A DNA stretch of 64,000 nucleotides, taken from the NCBI GenBank assembly GCA_025924835.1, contig JAICHO010000001.1, positions 2,553-66,552 of the forward strand. The letters are read 5' to 3'. Each line of letters starts with the position of its first letter. The first letter of the stretch is position 1. This DNA comes from Candidatus Saccharimonadota bacterium. GTDB taxonomy: Bacteria; Patescibacteriota; Saccharimonadia; Saccharimonadales; JAICHO01. This document shows positions 1-41,874 of this stretch, in pieces. The notes below the pieces were generated by a model. The model was given only the letters and a program-made list of their open reading frames with translations, was not told where the DNA came from and did not search any database. A program made the position numbers and the translations under genes.

Positions 1-2020
1 GATTGGCGACACGTTCCTCGCTCATTTCGCTGACATGCACCAGGCCGTCTTTGCCAGGCAGTATCTGTACGAACGCACCAAAATCCATAACTGTCATAAC
101 CGGTACGTTAGTATAGATTGTGCCGACTTCCGGTTCGGCCGTAATGTCACGGACCATCTTGATAGCGGCATCAATAGAGGTTTTGTCAGGACTGGCAATC
201 ATCACGGTGCCGTCATCTTTAATATCAATTTCGGCTCCCGTCTGGGCGATGATCTTGTTGATAGTTTCGCCGCCCTTGCCAATCACCTCGCGGATTTTAT
301 CGGGGTTGATCTGTATGGATTCTACGCGTGGCGCGTACGGGCTTAGCTCTGCCCGGGGGGCGGCAATCGTATCAACCATGTGTGACAAAATAAACATGCG
401 GCCGTCGCGGCTCTGTTCTAGTGCCTTTTGCAGTATCTCCACAGGCAGACCGTGGACTTTCATGTCCATCTGCAAGGCCGTTATACCCTCCGTCGTACCT
501 GTAACCTTAAAGTCCATGTCTCCGGCAAAGTCCTCGGCATCGGCAATGTCACTGAGTATGTACGGCTTATCACCGTCCAGCATTAGCCCCATGGCAATCC
601 CGGAAACGGGGCGCTTCAGCGGCACGCCGGCATCCATCAGTGCCATGCACGATGAACAGGTGGCGGCCATACTGGTGCTGCCGTTCTGGCTCATGATCTC
701 GGTTACGGAACGGATCATGTAGGGGAATTCAGCCTCGGTAGGCAGTACGGCGGTCAAAGCCCTCTCTGCCAGATAACCGTGGCCGATTTCACGACGCCCC
801 GGCGAGCCCAAGCGGCGAACTTCGCCAACGGTATAACCCGGTGCGTTGTAGTGATGCAGATACCGGCGCTCGCCTTCGCGCTCCATGGTATCAACCAGCT
901 GGACATAACTCAGCGGTGCCAAGGTTACTATATTCAATGCCTGGGTCACGCCGCGGGTAAACAAGGACGAACCATGCACACGGGGCAAGATGCCGACCTC
1001 ACTGGACAGCGGCCGGATTTCATCAAGCTTGCGGCCGTCAGGACGGATTTGGTCACTCACAATACCCTTGCGGACGTCTTTGTGTAGGGCCATGGTGAAG
1101 GCTTCGTCATAATCTGCCCGTTTAACCCCGTAGTCCTCCCCTATTTGCTCCGCAAATTCAGCGTGAAACTTGTCCCGCAAAACTTTAATTAGTTCATTAC
1201 GTTCAGGGTATGGGGTACGCAGGGCCTCCCCCAATTTACCGTCTACCCACTTTTCTACTTCAGACAGAATAGAGTCGTCTGGCAGTACTAGCTCGTATTC
1301 ATGCTTGGTCACACCGACTTTAGCGGCTAGTTCTTCTTGCAAGGCAATGGCGGGCTGCATGGCTTCAAAAGCGCTCTGCATAGCATCAGTAATCTGTTGT
1401 TCACTGACTTCGCTGGCACCAGCTTCTACCATCATAATGCCATCTTTGGTACCGGCCACCACTAAATCAAGCATACCCTTGTCTAGTTCCTCCGGCGAGG
1501 CAAATGCCTTGAATTTGCCGTCTGCCAACCCGACGCGAAGTCCAGCTACAGGACCGTCAAATGGCGCGCCAGTCAGCATAAAGGCAGCACTCATAGCAAT
1601 CATTGCCACCATGTCTGGCCGGAATCCAGGGTCCATGCTCAGTACCGTAGCCACGCCTTGCACTTCCTGCCGGTAGCCTTTGGGCCACAAGGGACGAATC
1701 GGGCGATCAATCAGGCGGCCGATCAAGATAGCGTCGTCAGATGGGCGGCCCTCGCGCTTAATAAACCGCGAGCCACTGACTTTGCCCGAAGCATACATTT
1801 TTTCTTCATAATCTATTGATAGCGGAAAATAATCCATGCCGCTAATCGAGCGGTCACTGACCATGGCCGTCCCAAGCACGACCGTGTCACCATAACGCAC
1901 CAGCACGGATGCCGAGGATCTAAAGCCGACCCGGCCTACTTCCAGGCTCAGTGTCCGGCCGCATAACTGCGTTTCTACTTTAATAATATCTTTGCCAAAG
2001 GGGTTAATGATCTGTCCCAT
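1..2020 (-). CDS. pnp: polynucleotide phosphorylase (PNPase), 3' (C-terminal) end runs off the window start
   Basis: Reverse-strand translation from ATG at 2018-2020 gives MGQIINPFGKD..., RNase PH-like domains, a KH motif IGKGGETINKI and an S1 domain near position 1. The six-frame plus ORFs here are antisense artefacts. Conserved rpsO-pnp synteny. Confidence 0.93.
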   Translation of the reverse strand, partial: MGQIINPFGKDIIKVETQLCGRTLSLEVGRVGFRSSASVLVRYGDTVVLGTAMVSDRSISGMDYFPLSIDYEEKMYASGKVSGSRFIKREGRPSDDAILIGRLIDRPIRPLWPKGYRQEVQGVATVLSMDPGFRPDMVAMIAMSAAFMLTGAPFDGPVAGLRVGLADGKFKAFASPEELDKGMLDLVVAGTKDGIMMVEAGASEVSEQQITDAMQSAFEAMQPAIALQEELAAKVGVTKHEYELVLPDDSILSEVEKWVDGKLGEALRTPYPERNELIKVLRDKFHAEFAEQIGEDYGVKRADYDEAFTMALHKDVRKGIVSDQIRPDGRKLDEIRPLSSEVGILPRVHGSSLFTRGVTQALNIVTLAPLSYVQLVDTMEREGERRYLHHYNAPGYTVGEVRRLGSPGRREIGHGYLAERALTAVLPTEAEFPYMIRSVTEIMSQNGSTSMAATCSSCMALMDAGVPLKRPVSGIAMGLMLDGDKPYILSDIADAEDFAGDMDFKVTGTTEGITALQMDMKVHGLPVEILQKALEQSRDGRMFILSHMVDTIAAPRAELSPYAPRVESIQINPDKIREVIGKGGETINKIIAQTGAEIDIKDDGTVMIASPDKTSIDAAIKMVRDITAEPEVGTIYTNVPVMTVMDFGAFVQILPGKDGLVHVSEMSEERVAN

Positions 2021-2181: not shown

Positions 2182-2448
2182 TTACTTTCTAAGACCAAGC
2201 TTTTCTATAAGTGATAGGTAAGCTTTGCCATCCTGCTCGGCCAAGTACTTCAGCAGACGTTTGCGCTTGCCTACAGCCTGCAGTAAGCCGCGGCGAGCCA
2301 TAAAATCATGCTTGTTTAGCTTTAAATGCGCCGTCAGTTCCTTGATGCGCTCCGTAAGTATCCCTACCTGTACGGCTGGACTGCCTGTATCTTTTTTGTC
2401 TCTCTGTAAGTCAGCAACAATCTTGCTTTTCTTTTCGGTTGAAATCAT
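2182..2448 (-). CDS. rpsO: 30S ribosomal protein S15
   Basis: 88 aa with typical S15 sequence (LTERIKELTAHLK..., GLLKMVGKRRRLL-like); lies immediately upstream of pnp as in most bacteria. Confidence 0.95.
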   Translation of the reverse strand: MISTEKKSKIVADLQRDKKDTGSPAVQVGILTERIKELTAHLKLNKHDFMARRGLLQAVGKRKRLLKYLAEQDGKAYLSLIEKLGLRK

Positions 2449-2579: not shown

Positions 2580-3023
2580 TTATTCCGTCCATACTATGAA
2601 AGGGTGCAACGGCTTAAGCAGCCCGACTATATCCCTCAGGGGTGGTTCATACTCTGGCTTGAAACCGGGGCTTGTACTCTGCACAACTAAATGTGCACCT
2701 GGGCCGTCATTTTCATACCAATATAAGCTGCCGACCGGAATGCTACTTTTTTCGCCCACTACCAGCCTGCGTTCATGACGTACACCTTCGGCCAAGTCTA
2801 CCGCTATAAGCCTGCCCAGCCCGTCTAATATCCTGTCATTAAAAGGTTCGCCGGTTATAAGCACGCACGGTTCAGTCGCCGACCGGACGGTCATCAGGAC
2901 ACGGTCGTCCGGACCAAGACCAGGCCCAGCCACGGGGATCATGTCAAAATCTACGTTATCATGCTGAAAAGTCTCCGGCTTGCCAGCGGTTTCGTCTTTA
3001 CCTAAAAATTCCTCATAAGACAT
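2580..3023 (-). CDS. hypothetical protein (147 aa)
   Basis: Intact ORF between the ABC-F gene and rpsO with no competing ORF; no motif recognised. Confidence 0.5.
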   Translation of the reverse strand: MSYEEFLGKDETAGKPETFQHDNVDFDMIPVAGPGLGPDDRVLMTVRSATEPCVLITGEPFNDRILDGLGRLIAVDLAEGVRHERRLVVGEKSSIPVGSLYWYENDGPGAHLVVQSTSPGFKPEYEPPLRDIVGLLKPLHPFIVWTE

Positions 3024-3046: not shown

Positions 3047-4726
3047 TTACTGCGTATTAGCAATACCCGAGAGGCCGATTTGGACTGTTTCGCCGCCAAG
3101 GTTGCGCACAAAGTAACTGTCATGAGAGATATAGAGAATGGCGCCGTGGTACTGCCTCAGGGCATCCTCCAGCTCCTCAATACTAGGCAAATCAAGATGA
3201 TTGGTCGGCTCGTCCAGGATAAGCATATGCGGGTCGTTAGCTAACATCTGGATAAGCTGGAACCGAGCTTTTTGGCCGCCGCTGAGACGGGATATCGGCA
3301 TCTCCCCATCCGTAGCCGGGTTAAACAAATAGTCGCCTAGGAACTGCTTGATCTTTTGCTCATTGATAATCAGCCCACTGTCACGGCAAGCCTGTTCGAT
3401 GGCATCGTGCAGGCTCATATCCAGATACTTTGAGTCAATTTCTTGTTCGTACACACCGATACTAATAGCCGGTTCGATGGCTATGTGTCCACCGTATTGC
3501 TCAGACGCTGTTTTTGAATCTGTCGCTTTGGCTAATATAGCCTTAACCAGTGTTGATTTGCCAGCTCCGTTACGGCCGTGTAGACGCAGGCGTTCGCCTT
3601 CACGCAAACTAAAACTCACATCCTTAAAAAGCGGCTGGCCTCCGTAACCCAAGCTTATGTTGCTGACCTCCATCAGTAATCTGTCCGATTTGGTGTCCTG
3701 GCTTCGTGTCCGGACTTTGATGTTGCGCGATTTATGCTCTTGGTAGGCGCTGCTCATTTTGGTGTTCAGACCAGTCACTGACTCGCGGTCAATCCAGAAC
3801 GACGGCTTATCTTTGCCCTGCAGTACATTCAACTCCGTTTCGGCCTTGGTTTGGAGAGATTTGAAACGCTGGATCGTGCCAGGATCACGTGAGCGTTCCT
3901 TGAGCCGGCGGAAACGGATGACTTCTTCTTTGAGATTAGAGATACGGCGCTGGGTGATTTCGTATTCGTTAACCGCCGAAACGACTTTGTTGGCATTGAT
4001 ACGCAAATAATCATCGTAGTTGCCCGGAAAGTTAAACACCTGCCCATCACGAATTTCCACAACTAAATCTACTGCCCGTAACACATCCCGGTCATGAGTA
4101 ATAACAACGACTGCGTCTTTGGTCGTATTGAACCAATCCAGAAATACTTCTTTGGCGGCATAGTCCATATGGTTAGTCGGCTCATCAATCAGGGCCAGAT
4201 CAGCCCGGGCATGCTGAACCTTGACCAGCTCAATGAATCGTTTCTGGCCGCCGGATAGGTTGCCCAATGTACCGTTAATCTGTTCCTGGTTTAATTGGTA
4301 AGCCAGCAAGCTGCGAACTATTTCTTCTTCAACCATGAAATAACCGAGCACGTTAAAGCGTTCCAGTGCCTCGCTGTATTCATGCAATTTTTTCATATTG
4401 CTGCCCATTGTTTCCGGATAGGTATCCAAAATGTGTTTGAGCTTGGCATACTCCGGCAGGTCATCCAAAATATAGGCGAGTACGGGCAGTTGTTCATACC
4501 CATGAAGCTCCTGGCGCGAATTAATTACTATAAGGTTTTTCTTAAACTCAATTTCGCCAGCATAGTCCTTGTCTTCCCCGGTCAATATATGGAATAAGGT
4601 CGTCTTGCCGCTGCCATTGCGTCCAATTAGACCAACTTTTTCATGGGCGCGAAGCTGAAACGACAAATTCCGGTAGAGAATTTTGTCGCCAAACGATTTT
4701 TCGGTAACCGAGATACTGGCAATCAT
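3047..4726 (-). CDS. ABC-F family ATPase (EttA/Uup-like translation factor), two tandem ABC domains and no TM domain
   Basis: Two Walker A motifs (GRNGSGKTTL and GRNGAGKSTL), two signature motifs (LSGGQKRF and LSGGQKARF), and a charged linker between the domains. Confidence 0.9.
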   Translation of the reverse strand: MIASISVTEKSFGDKILYRNLSFQLRAHEKVGLIGRNGSGKTTLFHILTGEDKDYAGEIEFKKNLIVINSRQELHGYEQLPVLAYILDDLPEYAKLKHILDTYPETMGSNMKKLHEYSEALERFNVLGYFMVEEEIVRSLLAYQLNQEQINGTLGNLSGGQKRFIELVKVQHARADLALIDEPTNHMDYAAKEVFLDWFNTTKDAVVVITHDRDVLRAVDLVVEIRDGQVFNFPGNYDDYLRINANKVVSAVNEYEITQRRISNLKEEVIRFRRLKERSRDPGTIQRFKSLQTKAETELNVLQGKDKPSFWIDRESVTGLNTKMSSAYQEHKSRNIKVRTRSQDTKSDRLLMEVSNISLGYGGQPLFKDVSFSLREGERLRLHGRNGAGKSTLVKAILAKATDSKTASEQYGGHIAIEPAISIGVYEQEIDSKYLDMSLHDAIEQACRDSGLIINEQKIKQFLGDYLFNPATDGEMPISRLSGGQKARFQLIQMLANDPHMLILDEPTNHLDLPSIEELEDALRQYHGAILYISHDSYFVRNLGGETVQIGLSGIANTQ

Positions 4727-4740
4727 AGCGTCCTGCTAGT

Positions 4741-5424
4741 CTACCGTGTCCGCAGACCGGCCACAATGCGATCGACTGTCAGGCCATCCATATTGAGAGC
4801 ATCTTTAACGTCCCAGCTGGCAACACTCACGCGGCGGAGTCCGGACATATAAGCGCCCGTTCCTAGACACGTGCCGATGTCTTCTGCTAATGTCCGGATA
4901 TAGGTACCGGATGAGACACGAGCGGTAAATTTAATATCAGGATAGGTGTAGGACGTTAACTGCAAGTCGTAAATTGTTACTTGCCTGGGTTCAATATGCA
5001 CTTCTTTACCTGCCCGTGCCAGTTTATAGGCGCGTTGTCCGTTTACCTTAATCGCCGAGTACGCCGGCGGTATTTGCATGATTTTACCCGTAAACTGCGC
5101 TAAGGCTGATTGTATGGCCTCGGCGATGGGTTGAATATCTGAAATTGATTTTTTGTCGCCCTCGTCATCACCGGTCGTGCTGGTTTGGCCCAAACGCATG
5201 GTCACCTCATAGGTTTTATCGGCTTTACTAAATTCATGTGCCCGTTTGCAATAATCGCCCAGCACTAACACCAAAAGCCCCGTAGCCAGCGGATCCAGCG
5301 TGCCGGTATGCCCCACTTTAGGCTTTTTTATACCCGCTTCGTGTTTAATAATGCCTCTTACCTTGGCTACCACGTCAAAACTGCTCCAGCCAGAGGGCTT
5401 ATCTATCAGTAAAATACCGTCCAT
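4741..5424 (-). CDS. truB: tRNA pseudouridine(55) synthase TruB
   Basis: MDGILLIDKPSGWSSFDVV...HTGTLDPLATGLL catalytic Asp motif. Start chosen at MDGILL (5424) rather than the ORF-track start 5490, which would overlap the upstream gene. Confidence 0.88.
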   Translation of the reverse strand: MDGILLIDKPSGWSSFDVVAKVRGIIKHEAGIKKPKVGHTGTLDPLATGLLVLVLGDYCKRAHEFSKADKTYEVTMRLGQTSTTGDDEGDKKSISDIQPIAEAIQSALAQFTGKIMQIPPAYSAIKVNGQRAYKLARAGKEVHIEPRQVTIYDLQLTSYTYPDIKFTARVSSGTYIRTLAEDIGTCLGTGAYMSGLRRVSVASWDVKDALNMDGLTVDRIVAGLRTR

Positions 5425-5428
5425 AGTT

Positions 5429-6013
5429 TTAGTATAGGCCAAGGGCTTGCCGGAAGGCGGGATCGGCAGGATCACCCATGAGACCGGCAATGCGGCCTAG
5501 CGGAAAGGTCCGTAGCCCTTGCGGTTCGCCGGCAGCAGTAAATTGCTCGCCGGCAATATAAAATCCCGGATTTTCCGGAGCAATTCCTTCTTCGGGTTTG
5601 CCCATGTGGCCCTCGTGCACCCCATAATATATATCCTTAGGCTTAAACAACCGCTCGACCGCTTCTACACCGAGGCCCTGTTTGTCATAATGAATGCCTG
5701 CTACTAATCCGGCCACAGGAATTTCCGTGACGCGAACTCCCGCTAAAAATGCCACGTCTACTGTGGTCGCAAATGACCGAGACCCATAATCACCGGCGTA
5801 GCCGACAACTCTTAAAAGCAACCTCCCTGCCTCCTCATTTACGCCTAACGGCTTTAGGGGCACCGGATGGACAAACCGATTAGGGTTGGCGCCACTGCGC
5901 AGGCGGATGGGTTGGCCAAGAAGCGAAATATTAACTTCTGTAATGCGCGTATACTCAGACTGAATTAACTCACTGTCTGTCGCAGCTTCAGGGAACCCAC
6001 TAGATGTAACCAT
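5429..6013 (-). CDS. hypothetical Gly-rich protein (194 aa), no Cys
   Basis: ORF tightly packed between the DHH-like gene and truB (5-nt gap to truB); no recognisable motif. Confidence 0.5.
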   Translation of the reverse strand: MVTSSGFPEAATDSELIQSEYTRITEVNISLLGQPIRLRSGANPNRFVHPVPLKPLGVNEEAGRLLLRVVGYAGDYGSRSFATTVDVAFLAGVRVTEIPVAGLVAGIHYDKQGLGVEAVERLFKPKDIYYGVHEGHMGKPEEGIAPENPGFYIAGEQFTAAGEPQGLRTFPLGRIAGLMGDPADPAFRQALGLY

Positions 6014-6059
6014 ATGCTTATTCTAACATACTTACGCCGTTTTTACAAATTACGGCGCG

Positions 6060-7982
6060 CTACATTATGGTGGGGTCGTCACTGCCGGCAGGTGGTGCCA
6101 TAGGCGGCATCATGGGCGGCGGTACGGGTGGCGGTGCCGTAGGATCACTGACCGAGCCCGATAACTGCGCGCTGTCTTCTTGATCCTGTGTTGATGTTGG
6201 TACTACTACTGTGGGCGGCAAACCACGCCCAGACGGTACGACACTGTCAACTGCCGGAACTGTTGGGATCGGTGGTGGTAGAGGTAACGAACTATCGGCG
6301 AAAGCCGAGGCGGGAGATGTGTTAACGGCTGGGATATCACCGAGGTTTAAATCCATAGGTTGGGCGTTTAGGGATTGCACCGGCTCTAGAATTTGGGGGG
6401 TGGTAGCACTCATGGCTTGCGATACGGCATCACGGGCCGCATCCACATCAGTATCTGTGGGTATTGGCGGCTGAGGTTCGCTTGTTACCGGCTCTGTTAC
6501 TTCCATGGGCGCGCTAGATATAGATTTTTCTAAATCAGCCAGCGTCTGGGGAGCGGATTCGGTCGCAGGAAGAGTTGGTAAGGGTGGCACCGCATCGGAA
6601 GAAGACTGACCTGAATCTGCCGGAGCTGGAGCCATATCGTCAGGAGCGCTTGAAGGCTCAGGATTAAAGTCACTCAATGGCAAGGCAGGTAACGTAGCTG
6701 CTTCTGTTTCATCATCTGATGATTCAATGGCAGGAGTAGGCTCGGTCACATCTACCTGCGTTGTAGCCGCGGCGTCCTTGTCGTGGCTTAGTAGCGGTCC
6801 CCCGTTATTCAGGGGTCCCAAAATATCCGTAGCTGGTTCCAGGCTTTCGGGGTTACTGTTGGCAGTTAGAGTCCCGCCCAATGTAGGTGGCTCAAGGATA
6901 AAGCCCGAATTACCGGATTCCGGGCTTGGAGAGATTTCCTCAGTCGGTTCAGGGATTTCGGGCAACGCTGCTTCTTCCGGTTTATCACTGGGGTGAAGCC
7001 TCCCCTCGTCGTCAATGTGAATTTGCTCGGGTGGCGGAGCTGGCTCATCTTCGGCAGGAGCCTCATCCTCAACCTCAGAATGGAGCCCAAGATCTTTTAG
7101 TTGTTCGTGGTCTATTTGCAAGGTACCGGCCGGCGATTCAGCGACTGGAGGCGGCATAGGGTCACCTTCCTGGTGTTGGTCAATCTGAGGCAACTCCAGA
7201 GCTTCGTCTTCCGCCGGAACCGGAGCCGATACCGACGTAGCGGGTGGCTGCAATTGGCTGGCAACGAGTTGCTGGTTAGCTCCGGCTGACATAAGTTTGG
7301 CACTAACCTGCATTGTTTCAGAACTTGTTTTTTCGTTACTAAACCGGTTGGTTTCAGCTACGATACCGGTCAATAGCGCAGTAGACATCTGGTTATCCAG
7401 GACATCAGCCTTGATCGCCAAGCCAAGTTGCGTGAGCATTTCGCATAAACTGCTCGCCGCCTGGTCAGTCCAGTTGATACTGCCTAGCGACACATCACCC
7501 TGATTACTCATACCTATCACCGTTGCATCATGTAGAATACGTCCATGAGCCGTAATTGCCTGATCTAAATCTTCCTGTTTTTGGACGCCCAGCGCCATAA
7601 CGACATCTACATTAAAATCACCTTGGCTGAATTCCAGGTCTTTATCGCTTATTGAGGTCATGTACGGTGTAATAAAAATCTTGACCATCTGGTCTTCGAC
7701 CTTATAGCGAAGCTTGTCAGCCTTGGATTTGTCCAAAGCAATAATAAAATCACGGAGTGAGTTGGGGCTTTTTTCTAATGTTTTTTCCGGTTGCAAGAAC
7801 TGGATGGTGCTAGGAACGGCGCCACTAAAGACGGCAGTAGCATGTTTGCCCAGTTTATTAAGAAGCAGCGTTAAGCCGATAGCACCAGCTAACTGATCCA
7901 CAGACGGATTGGTGCTTACCGTTACCAATATATTTGTCGCCTGGTTAAGACGATCAGCAATCTGATTTTTTTGAGTATCCAT
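6060..7982 (-). CDS. NrnA-like DHH-family domain protein with degenerate catalytic motifs fused to a ~400-aa low-complexity Pro/Glu/Ser/Thr-rich tail; no DHHA1 domain
   Basis: N-terminal 240 aa align to the NrnA/DHH fold (LVTVSTNPSVDQLAGAIGL vs the canonical HxxPDGDAxGS; TALLTGIVAETNRFS helix), but the DHH triad is not conserved. The C-terminus is intrinsically disordered and ends PPPVPPPMMPPMAPP. Confidence 0.7.
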   Translation of the reverse strand: MDTQKNQIADRLNQATNILVTVSTNPSVDQLAGAIGLTLLLNKLGKHATAVFSGAVPSTIQFLQPEKTLEKSPNSLRDFIIALDKSKADKLRYKVEDQMVKIFITPYMTSISDKDLEFSQGDFNVDVVMALGVQKQEDLDQAITAHGRILHDATVIGMSNQGDVSLGSINWTDQAASSLCEMLTQLGLAIKADVLDNQMSTALLTGIVAETNRFSNEKTSSETMQVSAKLMSAGANQQLVASQLQPPATSVSAPVPAEDEALELPQIDQHQEGDPMPPPVAESPAGTLQIDHEQLKDLGLHSEVEDEAPAEDEPAPPPEQIHIDDEGRLHPSDKPEEAALPEIPEPTEEISPSPESGNSGFILEPPTLGGTLTANSNPESLEPATDILGPLNNGGPLLSHDKDAAATTQVDVTEPTPAIESSDDETEAATLPALPLSDFNPEPSSAPDDMAPAPADSGQSSSDAVPPLPTLPATESAPQTLADLEKSISSAPMEVTEPVTSEPQPPIPTDTDVDAARDAVSQAMSATTPQILEPVQSLNAQPMDLNLGDIPAVNTSPASAFADSSLPLPPPIPTVPAVDSVVPSGRGLPPTVVVPTSTQDQEDSAQLSGSVSDPTAPPPVPPPMMPPMAPPAGSDDPTIM

Positions 7983-8122
7983 TTTTATTTTTTGATCCTA
8001 CGCAGGGCAGATTAGCATAAACGGCAAGCCTTGTCCACTGTTAAAGTGCTTATTCCTTTACAACCAAAGCCTAACAGGGTATATTCAGAGACGATAACCA
8101 TTAAACATAAGCAGGATAAAAT

Positions 8123-8533
8123 ATGCCAATTATCAAATCAGCCAAAAAACGCGTACGGGTTGCCCGTAAGGCGACCGTCCGTAATGTCAAAACAAAGCGT
8201 GGCCTGAAGGTAGCGCTAAAAGCCTTCCACGCAAGCCTCACCAGTGGTAAAAAAACAGCTGCAGCCCACTCAAAAGCTCAAAGCCGTCTGGACAAAGCCG
8301 GTAAAAAAGGCGTTCTACACAAAAACAAAGTAGCCCGCAAAAAGAGCCAATTATCTGTTAAGGCAAAAGCCGCAGCCGGTGTTACCAAGCCCAAAGGCGC
8401 CAAAAAAGCCGTTACTAAAAAGCCAGCTGTCAAAAAAGCTGCCCCTAAAAAGGTCGTAGCCAAGAAAACCGTGGCTAAAAAACCGACTGCCAAAAAGTCC
8501 CCTGCCAAGAAAACAACAGCCAAGAAAAAATAG
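8123..8533 (+). CDS. rpsT: 30S ribosomal protein S20 with a Lys/Ala-rich C-terminal extension
   Basis: MPIIKSAKKRVRVARKA...VLHKNKVARKKSQL matches S20, followed by ~50 aa of AKK/PKK repeats; AGGA SD upstream. Confidence 0.9.
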   Translation: MPIIKSAKKRVRVARKATVRNVKTKRGLKVALKAFHASLTSGKKTAAAHSKAQSRLDKAGKKGVLHKNKVARKKSQLSVKAKAAAGVTKPKGAKKAVTKKPAVKKAAPKKVVAKKTVAKKPTAKKSPAKKTTAKKK

Positions 8534-8547
8534 CCTCTATCTGCTTG

Positions 8548-9471
8548 CTAACCCCGACAGATGGTTAGAATATAGGCCTGTAAGGCGTCGTCGGCGTCAG
8601 TAGAGGTAGTCTTAATATGTAGGTCTAAGTCCAGAAGCTGGCTTATTAATTGCGTGACTCGCGATAAGGCTAGTTCGCGGGCTATGTGCCGACTTTTACG
8701 GACCACGAATGGGCTAAGCTTGGCTTCTTTGGCAATTTCAGCGTCACTACGCTGCCCAGCACTAACAATTAAAGCTACGACGTGTAGCTGCCAGGCTAGC
8801 ATACCAATGATAGCCAGCGGCTCAGTCTTACCTGCCCGCTGCTCCTGATAGATTTTAAGAGCCTTTTTAGCATTACCGGCAAAGGCTGCGTCCAAAAGCT
8901 GAAAAATAGTGCTTTGGGGCGTCGGCTCCGTTAACAAATCTATGCTTGTACGGTTAATCTTGGGGCTGTAGGTCAAAAGTTTGGCTAGCTCACTGCTCAG
9001 TAATTGCTGGTTTAGCCCGAGCCGCTCAATAAGATACCCGGCGTCAGGCCGTCCCAATACGCCACCCTGGTTTTTAGCTTGCTCAGTCAGCCATTGTATT
9101 AAGCTGGCCTCGTCCGGTTAGTTAAACTCTTTATAGTCGGTGTTTTTTTGCAAATACTTATAGTAAACAGACCGTTTATCGAGTTTTGGCTCATGAATAA
9201 TAAGGTCGGTCGTTTCGGGCAGATTAGCCAGGAGCTGTTCGACATGAGCGACAAACTCTTTATTGACCCCTGGGTTCCTAAGTACTACCAGCTTTTTGCT
9301 GGCCAGAAACGGCAAGCTTTCTAACGCTTCCCGCATTTGATCATACTCAGCTTCTTCCCCATCAAAGCGCTGCAAACCCATATCGGTGTATTGCGTCACA
9401 AAGTCTTTAACCAGCCGGCTCAGTTCAGCTTGAACAAGAAAATGATTACTTCCCGTCAGCGTGGTTATCAT
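8548..9471 (-). pseudogene. holA: DNA polymerase III delta subunit (HolA) interrupted by a single in-frame TAA at 9118-9120 (N-terminal ORF 9118-9471, C-terminal ORF 8548-9057, same frame)
   Basis: The two ORF-track products are the N- and C-terminal parts of delta. Translation across the gap is continuous (...KEFN*PDEASLIQWLTEQAKNQGGVLGRPDAGYL...) with both ORFs in the same frame. Confidence 0.7.
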
Positions 9472-38356: not shown

Positions 38357-39571
38357 TTACGGACCAGCTGACTGCAATGCCTGCAGTGTTTGAGGCCAGT
38401 TAGTACGGTCTTCTATGGCTTTTTGGGTGGCGTCGTCGGCTTTGTGAGTAATCTGCTTGTAGCCATTTTGGCCGGCGATTACGCCGTATTTGAGCTGCAA
38501 TTTTACTTTAGTGAGACCCTGTGCTTCGGCTTTGGCCAGACAGTCGTCATGGAAGGCCTTGCACTGGGGCGCCAAGGCCACCCATTTGGCGACATTATCG
38601 TCATACGGCACAGTCATTGTCACGTCTATGCTGGCGCTGCGTTGGGTTTCTGTGTCCAGCTGGTCAAATATAAAGTTGCCGGTGGAGTACACGATCAGTT
38701 TACCCCTGTAAACTTCGGTGTTTTGAACCCAATGGGGATTATTGGCAATCAAAAATTCCGGGCCATGGTCAATAATCTGATGGGCGATTTCTATCTGCGT
38801 GTCGTCGGCCTTAGGGTGGTACTCGACCCCCATTTCGGCAAAGGCGAATACCGGCATAACTCGTGCATATTTGTCCATGACGTCAATTTCACCGGGTTGT
38901 GGCTTGCGGTAAAAATAGTGCCAGCCGCAGAAAGCCACCGGAAGGGCAGATTTTTGCTCGGATTTGTCGGCTTGCAAAATGCGCACGGGCAAGGCTATGA
39001 CTTCGCATACATTTTGTGAATCAGCCGGGTCAAAAGTTCCAAAATATTGTACGCCGGCGGCCTCTAAATGCTGCCGAGTTTCATCCAAACCTTTTTCCCC
39101 GCCCTGGTTATCAGTATGGTTGTTGGCGAGGTCAAAAATGTTGAAGTACTTGGCGGCGAACGGTAAAAACTCCGGGCGACAATTAAACACAAGCGTATCA
39201 ATTTGCGCCTGGTAAGGCACGGTATTGTTAGTAATGGGACATTCAAAGTCCGTTGACCAGGCATCGTATTGGCTGCGGCCAAAGCTGTCCAGCTGGCTAA
39301 AAGGCTGGGCGTAGTCGCCGTGGGCTTGCTGCTCGACCGCCCTGGCCCAGGTTACCGTACCATTTAATAAATACTTGCCATTAACAGCGGTGGGCGTGGC
39401 AACAGGAGCCGGGGGAGTAGACGAAGCCTGTGTTGTGGCTGGCTGTTGCGCCATTTTAGACCTAAACAACAACTGATAGCTGATTATTGCCAAGATTATC
39501 AGAGCCAATCCGATGAGTCCTGCTACGAGGCGGTGAGTTTTTCTGTATGTGTGTCCGGCCTCGTAACGCAT
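38357..39571 (-). CDS. CapA/PGA_cap family metallophosphatase-like envelope protein
   Basis: N-terminal TM anchor and FDLANNHTDNQG motif. Confidence 0.75.
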   Translation of the reverse strand: MRYEAGHTYRKTHRLVAGLIGLALIILAIISYQLLFRSKMAQQPATTQASSTPPAPVATPTAVNGKYLLNGTVTWARAVEQQAHGDYAQPFSQLDSFGRSQYDAWSTDFECPITNNTVPYQAQIDTLVFNCRPEFLPFAAKYFNIFDLANNHTDNQGGEKGLDETRQHLEAAGVQYFGTFDPADSQNVCEVIALPVRILQADKSEQKSALPVAFCGWHYFYRKPQPGEIDVMDKYARVMPVFAFAEMGVEYHPKADDTQIEIAHQIIDHGPEFLIANNPHWVQNTEVYRGKLIVYSTGNFIFDQLDTETQRSASIDVTMTVPYDDNVAKWVALAPQCKAFHDDCLAKAEAQGLTKVKLQLKYGVIAGQNGYKQITHKADDATQKAIEDRTNWPQTLQALQSAGP

Positions 39572-40434: not shown

Positions 40435-41874
40435 TTAAAATTCGGTGGACTTAATGACACTTATGGGGGCGAATTTGGTAATAATACCCGTTACGCGGTC
40501 AGTTTGAGCCTGCACGGTCGTACCGTTCTGTGAGCGAGCTAAAGCGTCGGCGGCTTGGTCAAGCGGATATAATTTAAAGTCATGTCGGGCTAGTAGGTCC
40601 GCGTGCGACTGATTTTTCTTTTGGGCCGCCGTCCATTCGTAATGCATATAAAAAGGTAGGAGTTTAGGATTTTTAATCTGCTGGCTGGCAACATCAACAT
40701 CCATGATTGCCATACCGCCAATTAGATTTTCTATAGGGAGCTGGGAACTTATAAAACTACCCAGCGAATACCAGACCAGCGTTTGATGCCCGTCGCTACC
40801 ACTTAAGACCTTAGCCGGTTGCAGTACATGCGGTCCGACGCCAACAATCACATCCGCATTATAGCTAGCCAAGGTTTGGGAAATACGGTCCTGGTCAGCG
40901 CTAATATCACCGCTGTTTTCATTGCCCCAACTAATGCTGACGATAACAAAGCCGGCATTCTTGCGAGCCTCTTCAATTTGTTGTTTGGCGAGAGCATCGT
41001 TATACATATTGACACCGAAAGAAGTGGTCTGCGCGTTATTTGTACGCGTCGTGTATGACAAAAACGCGAACTTCACGCCTTTTACCTCAAAATATCGGAT
41101 TTTGTTTTGCTCCTCGGCGGATCGGTTGGCGCCCGCTACCGCTAGTATGTTTTTTTGACTATCCCAGCCCGCTAGCATGGCGTCAATTGCCGGTTGTCCT
41201 TTGTCATTGGTATGATCGGTGCCAAGATTCATGACATTGCAGCCAACCGCAGCAAAAGCCGTAGACCAGGCGGCCGGAGCATTAAAATTAGGATACGTGC
41301 TAATCCCCAGTCCTTCGCCGCCGGCAGGTGATGATTCGTTGCACAGTCGTATATCCGACTTATCAAAAAAGGGCTTCAGACTGCTCATAAGTGGCAGGTA
41401 ATCATAACCGCCGCTGGGCTGTTTGGCGGCATTATTAATCGATTCAAACGCCAGGTTATCCCCCGTAGCAACCAAACGTATACTTCCAGACGGCTGTGGC
41501 GCGGCGGCCGTAGTAGGTGTTACATGTACCTGGCTGGCTGGTGGAGCGGCCTTCTTAAAGTACTTATCGTACGAAACAAAAGACGCGCTGGCAGCTAAAC
41601 CAATCAGTAGAAGAAGGATCAGAACAGTTCGGAGGACCTTGGTCTTCTTGCGTTTTTTAATTGGTTGCGGCGCTCTGGCAACAGGTGCTGTGGGTGCGCT
41701 TGTCTCGGGCGCCGGAGACGGCTGCAGGTTACTAGCTGGAGCTAGCGGGCGGGGCGGCGGTATCGTACCCAGGCGGGATGAGCCCGCCCGTTGCTGTGGC
41801 CGCCCATAATAACCGGGAGCCGATCGCTGGCTCCCCCGAGCCCCTCTGAACCGGCTGCGAATATCATCATCCAT
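40435..41874 (-). CDS. CapA/PGA_cap family metallophosphatase-like envelope protein, paralog
   Basis: Low-complexity cytoplasmic N-terminus, a TM helix and MNLGTDHTNDKG motif. Confidence 0.75.
   Translation of the reverse strand: MDDDIRSRFRGARGSQRSAPGYYGRPQQRAGSSRLGTIPPPRPLAPASNLQPSPAPETSAPTAPVARAPQPIKKRKKTKVLRTVLILLLLIGLAASASFVSYDKYFKKAAPPASQVHVTPTTAAAPQPSGSIRLVATGDNLAFESINNAAKQPSGGYDYLPLMSSLKPFFDKSDIRLCNESSPAGGEGLGISTYPNFNAPAAWSTAFAAVGCNVMNLGTDHTNDKGQPAIDAMLAGWDSQKNILAVAGANRSAEEQNKIRYFEVKGVKFAFLSYTTRTNNAQTTSFGVNMYNDALAKQQIEEARKNAGFVIVSISWGNENSGDISADQDRISQTLASYNADVIVGVGPHVLQPAKVLSGSDGHQTLVWYSLGSFISSQLPIENLIGGMAIMDVDVASQQIKNPKLLPFYMHYEWTAAQKKNQSHADLLARHDFKLYPLDQAADALARSQNGTTVQAQTDRVTGIITKFAPISVIKSTEF

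Follow-up and report, generated by a model that had tools for sequence, protein, structure and literature searches.

Locus and gene

The DNA analysed here (the window) is a stretch of 64,000 nucleotides of contig JAICHO010000001.1, from a Candidatus Saccharimonadota bacterium. Its gene content is that of a saccharibacterium and includes pnp, rpsO, truB, rpsT, holA, mutM, polA, dnaG, argS, groEL, murE and otsA/B. Between rpsT and truB lies the gene under study, which encodes a 640-residue protein comprising an N-terminal domain related to the DHH phosphoesterases of the NrnA type and a long acidic tail that is predicted to be disordered (Table 1). The domain has lost most of the catalytic residues of NrnA, and the tail exhibits seven short conserved motifs. 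The ATG at 7982 is the first start codon of the frame, which reaches just five in-frame codons further upstream. When the family profile was compared with all open reading frames (ORFs) of the window, this ORF was the sole match, leaving no DHH paralogue among them.

The profile and the column counts given below are based on 121 family homologues. Tail motifs and tail composition were assessed on the 149 best representatives of 50%-identity clusters beyond the homologues already retrieved, gene order on 83 loci, and ORF length on 78 complete ORFs from species-representative loci. The closest orthologue, of 644 aa, was found at locus L004 and was used for codon comparisons.

Table 1. The DHH-like gene, its domains and motifs, and the conserved downstream genes
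Feature	Residues	Position in window	Strand	Basis or occurrence
Putative pseudo-NrnA (DHH-like) protein with disordered tail, complete coding sequence	640 aa + stop	6060..7982	(-)	
DHH-like domain	1-245	7248..7982	(-)	AlphaFold2, Foldseek, profile against PDB, dN/dS
Degenerate motif I, NPSVD	25-29	7896..7910	(-)	TmPDE alignment; H..D.D replaced by S23..S27.D29
Family-specific ultra-conserved segment	54-126	7605..7823	(-)	between core strands 2 and 3; contains D84
Former DHH position, VIGMSNQ	155-161	7500..7520	(-)	aligned to 'KIDHH' of 3dev/8iu7
Degenerate motif IV, GIVAETNRF	206-214	7341..7367	(-)	catalytic Asp replaced by E210
Acidic Pro-rich tail, predicted intrinsically disordered	246-640	6063..7247	(-)	composition, pLDDT, no tandem repeats
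S1, GTLQIDH	286-292	7107..7127	(-)	140/149 relatives, 0/149 shuffled
S2, QIHIDDEGRLH	320-330	6993..7025	(-)	97/149 relatives, 4 shuffled
S3, FILEPPTLGGTLTANSNPE	361-379	6846..6902	(-)	78/149 relatives, 0 shuffled
S4, QTLADLEKSISSAP	479-492	6507..6548	(-)	123/149 relatives, 11 shuffled
S5, DVDAARDAVSQAMSA	512-526	6405..6449	(-)	97/149 relatives, 2 shuffled
S6, ILEPVQSLNAQPMDLNLG	531-548	6339..6392	(-)	60/149 relatives, 0 shuffled
S7, C-terminal polyproline DPTAPPPVPPPMMPP	613-627	6102..6146	(-)	125/149 relatives, 15 shuffled
truB		4741..5424	(-)	Pfam TruB_N E 3.6e-51; downstream in 72/83 loci
rpsO (S15)		2182..2448	(-)	70/83 loci
pnp (PNPase)		2..2020	(-)	runs off the window; 68/83 loci

The DHH-like domain and its former active site

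With regard to the fold, AlphaFold2 (AF2) predicted a five-stranded parallel alpha/beta core (strands 17-22, 47-53, 127-131, 154-159 and 169-172) and terminal helices at residues 221-243, and the core showed a predicted local distance difference test score (pLDDT) above 85 (up to >85-90) in two runs. Foldseek matched this model to TmPDE, NrnA and GdpP with E ~1e-11 and a probability of 1.0. A phmmer search of the PDB retrieved TM1595 (TmPDE) of Thermotoga maritima (E 4e-9), and the 121-member profile retrieved SH1221, S. aureus NrnA, TmPDE, B. subtilis NrnA, GdpP and Rv2837c, the best E being 5e-16 (SH1221/NrnA). RecJ-like proteins ranked lower than NrnA/TmPDE in both the profile and the Foldseek lists. 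The homology of the N-terminal domain to the NrnA-type DHH fold is therefore secure, as had been proposed for the first ~240 residues in a reading made from the sequence alone (the sequence-only reading).

The domain nevertheless lies at the edge of existing family models. In a single-sequence scan it scored 16.6 bits against Pfam DHH (PF01368), below the gathering threshold of 28.1, although some homologues carry a precomputed PF01368 match; no other Pfam domain was found in the 640-residue protein. The NCBIfam NrnA equivalog NF053633 gave 33.9 bits against a cut-off of 350, over residues 160-245 only.

The active site of B. subtilis NrnA comprises H20, D24, D26, D80, H103, H104 and D156; replacing two of them (D80N/D156N) abolishes activity (PMC9757072). 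Five to six of these seven residues are replaced in the DHH-like protein. Motif I reads S23..NPS27-V-D29, with S27 present in 105 and D29 in 118 of the 121 homologues. The canonical IDHH maps to residues 158-161, where serine, asparagine and glutamine occupy the DHH position, and these columns vary freely in the family (S/T/G, I/V, N/S/T and others). The catalytic aspartate of motif IV, D154 in TmPDE (the D154N position of PDB 5o4z), aligns with E210 in the phmmer alignment, and this column comprises 84 E, 21 A and 9 S. Motif II is ambiguous: HMMER pairs TmPDE D80 with the near-invariant D84 of FIIALD, whereas in the AF2 model the third core strand is formed by residues 127-131, which places the invariant G132 at that position. 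Hence D29 is surely kept, and D84 is kept only under the HMMER registration.

The DHHA1 domain, with its GGGH-x-x-ASG and RxRxR motifs, is absent as well. No DHHA1 match was obtained with Pfam in the 640-residue protein at E<=0.1, and the sequence contains no 'DHH' or 'GGGH' string. The possibility that the tail motifs are relics of a melted DHHA1 domain is unsupported, as a profile of the proximal tail (S1-S3) gave 0 matches in the PDB, which holds many DHHA1-containing chains.

The two-metal active site is thus gone, and the protein can be inferred not to hydrolyse nucleotides. The sequence-only reading, which had pointed out the degenerate motif I (PSVD), the missing DHH triad and the replacement of DHHA1 by an acidic Pro-rich low-complexity tail, had judged that the protein looks like a dead enzyme. 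Alignment with NrnA-type structures recovered at most two of the seven catalytic residues, and the variability of the DHH and motif-IV columns further agrees with this conclusion, so that a catalytically dead pseudo-enzyme is well supported by the sequence.

An ultra-conserved segment within the core

Despite this loss, the domain is strongly constrained, with 91.8% identity to the L004 orthologue and a ratio of nonsynonymous to synonymous substitution rates (dN/dS) of ~0.04 at dS ~1.3. The most conserved part of the whole protein is a family-specific segment of 60-70 aa (...SLRDFIIALDKSKADKLRYKVE..VKIFITPY....DL.FSQGDFNVD); in 31 non-redundant sequences, 30 of its 71 columns show no variation. 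The segment is under extreme purifying selection, and we take it to be the functional surface of the folded domain.

No match was obtained for the segment alone in Pfam at E<=10, and neither a single-sequence nor a profile search of the PDB gave a significant relative. The matches to the phage Ltp lipoprotein 4eqq (both repeats, E 0.016-0.037) and to the B-domain of the GINS subunit Sld5 (E ~0.3) are non-significant and were rejected as evidence. Both come from PEKTLEKSPNSLRDFIIALDKSKADKLRYKV, residues 66-95, and are noted here since Cdc45, a dead DHH protein, docks on the GINS B-domain.

The tail and its conserved motifs

The tail comprises 395 residues, with 19% Pro, 11% Ala, 10% Ser and 18% Asp+Glu, and lacks Trp, Tyr and Cys. 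It has 70 acidic (D+E) and 7 basic (K+R) residues, a net charge of -63, and ends with ...APPPVPPPMMPPMAPPAGSDDPTIM. It falls on the disordered side of the charge-hydropathy boundary, and its pLDDT in the AF2 model is below 50 nearly throughout, only S2 (79) and S7 (73) being raised; the sequence-only reading had likewise described the tail as disordered. Approximately 60% of the ~1.9-kb gene thus codes for disordered chain. The tails of the 149 representatives are similar, the medians being 364 aa in length, 20.7% in Pro content and -0.116 in charge per residue. The tail alone gave no Pfam match at E<=10, and no homologue was retrieved at E<=1e-3 when only the C-terminal 136 aa served as query.

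Seven short motifs, S1 to S7, occur in the same order across the family, their median relative positions climbing monotonically among the 149 relatives. When regular expressions for the motifs were run against these relatives and against 149 shuffled tails, they matched 60-140 of the former and 0-15 of the latter. S1 has the family consensus DGTLEIxH, in which G, L, I and H are nearly invariant. S2 is a predicted beta-hairpin, with a mean pLDDT of 79 at residues 321-330 and short strands at 322-323 and 329-330. S7, the near-C-terminal polyproline APPPVPPPMMPP, has a median relative position of 0.97, and the motif series of the tail ends in DPxAPPPVPPPMMPP. The motifs are found in no other ORF of the window or of the 83 loci. 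A beta-clamp-binding motif was considered in S6 (QPMDLNL) and rejected, as it misfits the QL[SD]LF and QLxLxL consensus sequences.

Comparison with the L004 orthologue indicates that the motifs are maintained as peptides. The two tails are colinear and 67% identical, all indels are in frame, and the proportion of nonsynonymous differences (pN 0.21) is well below the saturated proportion of synonymous differences (pS 0.76). Within the motifs, S3 is identical despite 13 synonymous differences across the 20-codon stretch GNSGFILEPPTLGGTLTANS; S5 shows 6 synonymous and 0 amino-acid differences, as does S7; and the 35-codon block PQILEPVQSLNAQPMDLNLGDIPAVNTSPASAFAD, which includes S6, shows 16 and 0. 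Of the 83 codons compared in these four islands, 41 differ synonymously and none alters the amino acid, which argues for selection on the peptide and not on the DNA. By composition, pLDDT, motif enrichment and selection, the tail thus resembles the long disordered regions with conserved short linear motifs that are typical of hub proteins.

With regard to location, the N-terminus is hydrophilic, and no 19-residue stretch exceeds a hydropathy of 1.01. No signal peptide, transmembrane (TM) segment or LPxTG motif was found in the protein or in the 149 relatives, with the exception of one that just passes the TM hydropathy threshold. The protein is accordingly predicted to be cytoplasmic.

Distribution of the family and an apparent orthologue

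The close relatives of the protein were all found in Saccharibacteria / Saccharimonadales assemblies. When one genome per species was scanned, at least 550 stretches were confirmed as members of the family, nearly all with the same labels; the few odd taxon labels are probably binning or labelling issues, and the family is essentially restricted to Saccharibacteria. A long tail is the family norm, since the cluster representatives measure 495-867 aa and the complete ORFs have a median length of 578 aa.

Shorter sequences are common in databases. The 120 best matches in a 90%-clustered protein database measure 209-427 aa, all below any of the full-length representatives; 16 of the 17 matches named by NCBI are flagged 'partial', several of them on long contigs, and some matches finish in Arg-rich strings that look like frameshifts. 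It seems that assemblies break, or are mis-called, within the Pro-rich tail, which may reflect variability of the tail at the population level.

In Southlakia epibionticum ML1, SEML1_0073 (1812 bp, 603 aa, no Pfam match) is found between rpsT (SEML1_0072) and truB (SEML1_0076), with mutM and holA upstream of it, and a structure-based annotation places residues 1-75 and 91-260 in the ECOD group 'DHH phosphoesterases' (e5o25B1, probability 0.997) (PMC10633639). In the transposon sequencing (Tn-seq) data of the same study, this apparent orthologue is a 'core family' gene classified NE/GD/GD over three passages, its insertions falling from 69 in the input to 22, 17 and 10. The downstream truB is non-essential (PMC10633639), so the defect is not polar on truB. 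Core-family status and a contribution to fitness are therefore supported by published data on SEML1_0073. The same genome encodes an essential 'DHH family phosphoesterase' (SEML1_0394, K06881, 996 bp), the oligoribonuclease Orn (SEML1_0058) and RecJ (PMC10633639); as an essential canonical NrnA and an Orn are present, the nanoRNase function is covered by other genes.

The main text of PMC10633639 makes no mention of DHH, disordered or phosphoesterase and does not discuss SEML1_0073; the fold assignment is already known from its supplementary table. Searchable literature on Saccharibacteria together with DHH, NrnA or disorder, and on DHH pseudoenzymes, contained no paper on this family. New, as far as we can tell, are the observation that catalytic residues have been lost, the description of the conserved segment and of the tail motifs, and the statistics on synteny. 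Exact-sequence database look-ups returned no record for the 640-residue protein or for P0270, a database protein identical to the product of a neighbouring ORF described below. Database names for family members are 'hypothetical protein', 'DHH family phosphoesterase' and 'nanoRNase/pAp phosphatase'. The sequence evidence contradicts the last two of these labels, and metabolic reconstructions that count the family as a nanoRNase would be wrong.

Gene order

The order mutM - holA - (rpsT, divergent) - DHH-like gene - truB - rpsO - pnp is kept in ~70 of the 83 loci, and UDG and RNase J come after pnp in the loci inspected. The gap between the stop codon of the DHH-like gene and the start of truB has a median of 30 nt, 59 of 70 gaps being below 300 nt, which argues for co-transcription. 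A scan for promoters and terminators around the DHH-like gene gave background levels. The sequence-only reading had placed the gene in an rbfA/truB/rpsO/pnp neighbourhood; truB, rpsO and pnp are indeed downstream on the same strand, but rbfA is not adjacent, the upstream genes being rpsT, holA and mutM.

In actinobacteria, the NrnA' clade lies in the infB-rbfA operon (PMC4081065). The DHH-like gene plausibly descends from an nrnA gene located in a nusA-infB-rbfA-truB-rpsO-pnp supercluster.

Proposed function

Based on these observations, we incline, with modest confidence, to regard the protein as a pseudo-nanoRNase of the cytoplasm which belongs to the core proteins of Saccharibacteria and is probably a multivalent hub. 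It is a pseudo-enzyme from a known enzyme family fused to a disordered hub-like region and not a new kind of system. The sequence-only reading had left open a scaffold or a surface-associated role. The first is plausible and is strengthened by the seven conserved colinear tail motifs, whereas the second finds no signal peptide, TM segment or LPxTG motif to rely on.

The dimer interface of NrnA' is formed by its terminal helices (PMC4081065), to which the invariant ...LMAAGANQQL... helices of the family correspond. Since NrnA-type enzymes use the linker and the terminal DHH-domain helix to dimerise, and since the corresponding helices are invariant here, the dead DHH domain may act as an oligomerisation or docking module. 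The tail would then be a flexible, multivalent acidic tether, each motif of which recruits one partner. The most speculative step is the nature of these partners, which could be RNA-processing, RNA-decay or ribosome-biogenesis proteins; such partners appear the most likely because of the tight coupling to truB, the mostly conserved linkage to rpsO-pnp, the proximity of RNase J and the ancestry in an RNA-decay enzyme. The protein could in this way be a degradosome-like organiser, analogous to the C-terminal scaffold of RNase E.

A bolder version of this proposal can be put forward only tentatively, and we consider it clearly less probable than the general one. According to it, the protein would be the hub that organises a so far unrecognised assembly specific to Saccharibacteria. 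This assembly would be an RNA-processing body resembling a degradosome or else a polar or condensate-type compartment; in it, the dead domain would oligomerise via the ultra-conserved segment and each of the seven motifs would recruit a different client (e.g. PNPase, RNase J, TruB or ribosomal proteins). If true, bacteria would have their own equivalent of the Cdc45-type use of a dead DHH domain as a scaffold.

Several points weigh against the hub proposal. The assignment to RNA decay rests on gene order and ancestry, and the order was perhaps inherited from the ancestral position of nrnA; rpsO is, moreover, not adjacent in S. epibionticum. A purely acidic tail cannot itself bind RNA. SEML1_0073 is an apparent orthologue, equated by synteny, length and fold and not by sequence alignment. 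AlphaFold fails on the most conserved segment, the likely functional surface, to which two independent runs on different alignments both assigned a pLDDT below 50; the second, in which the N-terminal domain was modelled from 150 full-length relatives, brought no improvement for residues 60-121. Finally, the folded domain keeps the invariant polar residues D29, D78, D84, D89, D140, H146, H151, D152, E96, K87 and K94, which could form a new catalytic or ligand site.

Comparison with known systems

The closest relatives in both sequence and structure are the DHH-DHHA1 nanoRNases of the NrnA/NrnA'/TmPDE type (B. subtilis NrnA, S. aureus Pde2, M. tuberculosis Rv2837c CnpB and TM1595). The family shares their DHH fold, keeps the terminal helices and the linker region, and resembles the actinobacterial NrnA' clade (infB-rbfA-nrnA'; PMC4081065) in its genomic position within a translation/RNA-decay supercluster. 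It differs from them in that it keeps one to two of the seven active-site residues, lacks DHHA1, GGGH and RxRxR, exhibits an additional conserved core segment and a disordered tail of ~400 aa, scores under the cut-offs of Pfam DHH and NCBIfam NrnA, and coexists with a separate canonical NrnA in a relative. GdpP exhibits N-terminal TM helices, a PAS domain and a degenerate GGDEF domain before DHH-DHHA1, whereas the protein described here begins directly with the DHH-like domain.

Cdc45 and archaeal RecJdbh likewise exhibit a DHH fold with inactivating changes in most motifs. Cdc45 carries an acidic low-complexity disordered region on its DHH domain, the surface of which is reused for protein docking in a scaffold role (PMC4873980). 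However, Cdc45, which is eukaryotic or archaeal, is a member of the RecJ branch and has retained both a CID insertion and a DHHA1-like domain at the C-terminus. Where the family carries a 400-residue C-terminal motif tail, Cdc45 has only a short disordered stretch inserted internally; there is no sequence relationship between the two beyond the superfamily. The RecJ-type architecture (DHH, CID, DHHA1-like) and an association with CMG do not apply here, as the AF2 model shows no folded C-terminal domain and bacteria are without CMG.

The tail recalls the C-terminal scaffold of RNase E, PopZ and HubP, which also exhibit a long disordered region of biased composition with conserved microdomains, one of them at the very C-terminus. 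The microdomain at that end of RNase E recruits PNPase, and the gene described here is linked to pnp. There is no homology to these proteins; the tail is acidic throughout and lacks both a membrane-targeting helix and the Arg-rich segments that bind RNA, and the attached folded domain is a dead enzyme, not an active endonuclease.

Alternative explanations

The hub could serve a process unrelated to RNA, either as a polar or division organiser similar to PopZ or HubP, or as a replisome-associated adaptor near holA. Bacterial polar hubs typically exhibit acidic disordered regions rich in Pro, Glu and Asp together with terminal interaction motifs, which the tail resembles, and the gene is located between the holA/rpsT and truB clusters. 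A replisome role would also have a precedent in Cdc45, a dead-DHH replisome scaffold (PMC4873980), and the weak, non-significant resemblance of the segment to the Sld5 B-domain (E 0.3) points in the same direction. However, the sole tight coupling is to truB, holA lies beyond the divergent rpsT, and neither the GINS nor the Ltp match is significant. This alternative appears unlikely, although it fares better than those that follow.

A neofunctionalised hydrolase or transferase seems a little less probable still. The new site would be formed by invariant Asp, His and Lys residues of the segment together with the HGRILHD loop, and the tail would only localise or regulate the enzyme. The extreme purifying selection on the N-terminal domain and its many invariant charged residues, including D29, D84, H146, H151 and D152, could be explained in this way, and a pocket could be present in the most conserved segment, which is without a confident model. 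In contrast, most canonical metal ligands are replaced (five to six of seven), the former DHH and motif-IV positions vary freely, and DHHA1, which supplies substrate recognition, is absent. According to the AF2 model, H151 and D152 precede strand 4 and would thus lie at the opposite edge of the sheet from the canonical site. The canonical NrnA and Orn of the cultured relative also speak against a new enzyme.

The degenerate DHH domain might alternatively be a ligand sensor which binds nanoRNA, pApA, pAp or c-di-AMP without cleavage and thereby alters the exposure of the tail motifs. A dead NrnA (D80N D156N) still binds dinucleotides (PMC9757072), D29 and D84 are kept, the conserved basic patch K85/K87/K90/R92/K94 could contact phosphates, and the acidic tail could be an autoinhibitory mimic. 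Nevertheless, binding by NrnA required a divalent metal (PMC9757072), the ligands of which are mostly gone here, and the contribution of DHHA1 to substrate recognition is missing; we therefore consider a sensor improbable, slightly more so than a new enzyme.

Pro-rich acidic regions also occur in the wall-spanning parts of Gram-positive surface proteins, but a surface-associated or secreted Pro-rich protein is very improbable given the hydrophilic N-terminus, the missing export and anchoring signals and the folded N-terminal domain of a cytoplasmic enzyme type. Finally, that the tail is an artefact of mis-assembly, of a frameshifted fusion or of non-coding sequence, as might be suspected from the many truncated database copies, some with frameshift-like Arg-rich ends, is refuted by the absence of tandem repeats at 5900-8100 (Tandem Repeats Finder), the lengths of the representatives and their constant order of S1-S7, and the colinearity, in-frame indels and purifying selection on the islands seen with L004; this also disposes of the assembled repeat that the sequence-only reading had named as a possible refutation, and leaves the artefact a negligible probability.

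With regard to the significance of the preferred hub reading, Saccharibacteria are ultrasmall epibionts with genomes of ~1 Mb, in which much of the core gene set is without known function. A core, fitness-relevant gene of ~1.9 kb whose product is ~60% disordered is an unusual investment for a reduced genome. The seven motifs and the inserted conserved segment provide concrete, mutable handles, testable in the now genetically tractable Southlakia and Nanosynbacter systems. A hub, if confirmed, would show a dead DHH domain turned into a scaffold in a bacterium, a case absent from the literature searched, and would offer an entry point to how Saccharibacteria cells organise their RNA metabolism or cytoplasm.

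Other features of the locus

A 194-aa ORF (5429-6013, reverse strand) lies between the DHH-like gene and truB, with a gap of 46 nt to the former and its stop 4 nt ahead of the truB ATG. Neither Pfam nor NCBIfam gave a match for it, and it is absent from the 83 related loci, including L004, whose intergenic region is ~470 nt shorter. As a database protein (P0270) is 100% identical to its product and a homologue of 195 aa (P0271), 62% identical, occupies exactly this position in L084/L085, the ORF is real and is a lineage-restricted extra operon member. Further downstream, the stretch between truB and rpsO holds two insertions, a gene for an ABC-F ATPase (3047-4726, reverse strand) and a 147-aa ORF (2580-3023, reverse strand). 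L004 lacks the ABC-F gene, which follows truB in several other loci, namely L005, L006, L009 and L019; the 147-aa ORF has a match only in L004.

On the other side, rpsT (8123-8533, forward strand) adjoins the DHH-like gene in 78 of 83 loci and is divergent from it. Its product, S20, exhibits a C-terminal extension of 52 aa, of which 21 are Lys/Arg and none is acidic, next to a gene whose tail carries a charge of -63; the extension is rich in AKK/PKK, histone-H1-like, and gives a weak match to Pfam HC2.

In holA (8548-9471, reverse strand), the frame is broken by an in-frame TAA at codon 118 (9118-9120; ...KEFN*PDEASL...). In related loci holA is one intact gene of 304-305 aa, and it is essential in the S. 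epibionticum Tn-seq data (PMC10633639). As Glu occupies this position in 38 of 71 aligned homologues, a single GAA to TAA change would explain the stop, which is a sequencing error, a recent nonsense mutation or a case of read-through.

In the 64-kb window, ARAGORN detected no tRNA or tmRNA gene and no Rfam family reached its gathering threshold. Two PGA_cap (CapA-like poly-gamma-glutamate capsule synthesis) homologues are located at 40435-41874 and 38357-39571, both on the reverse strand, and the former exhibits a Pro-rich N-terminal region with 17 Pro in 100 aa.

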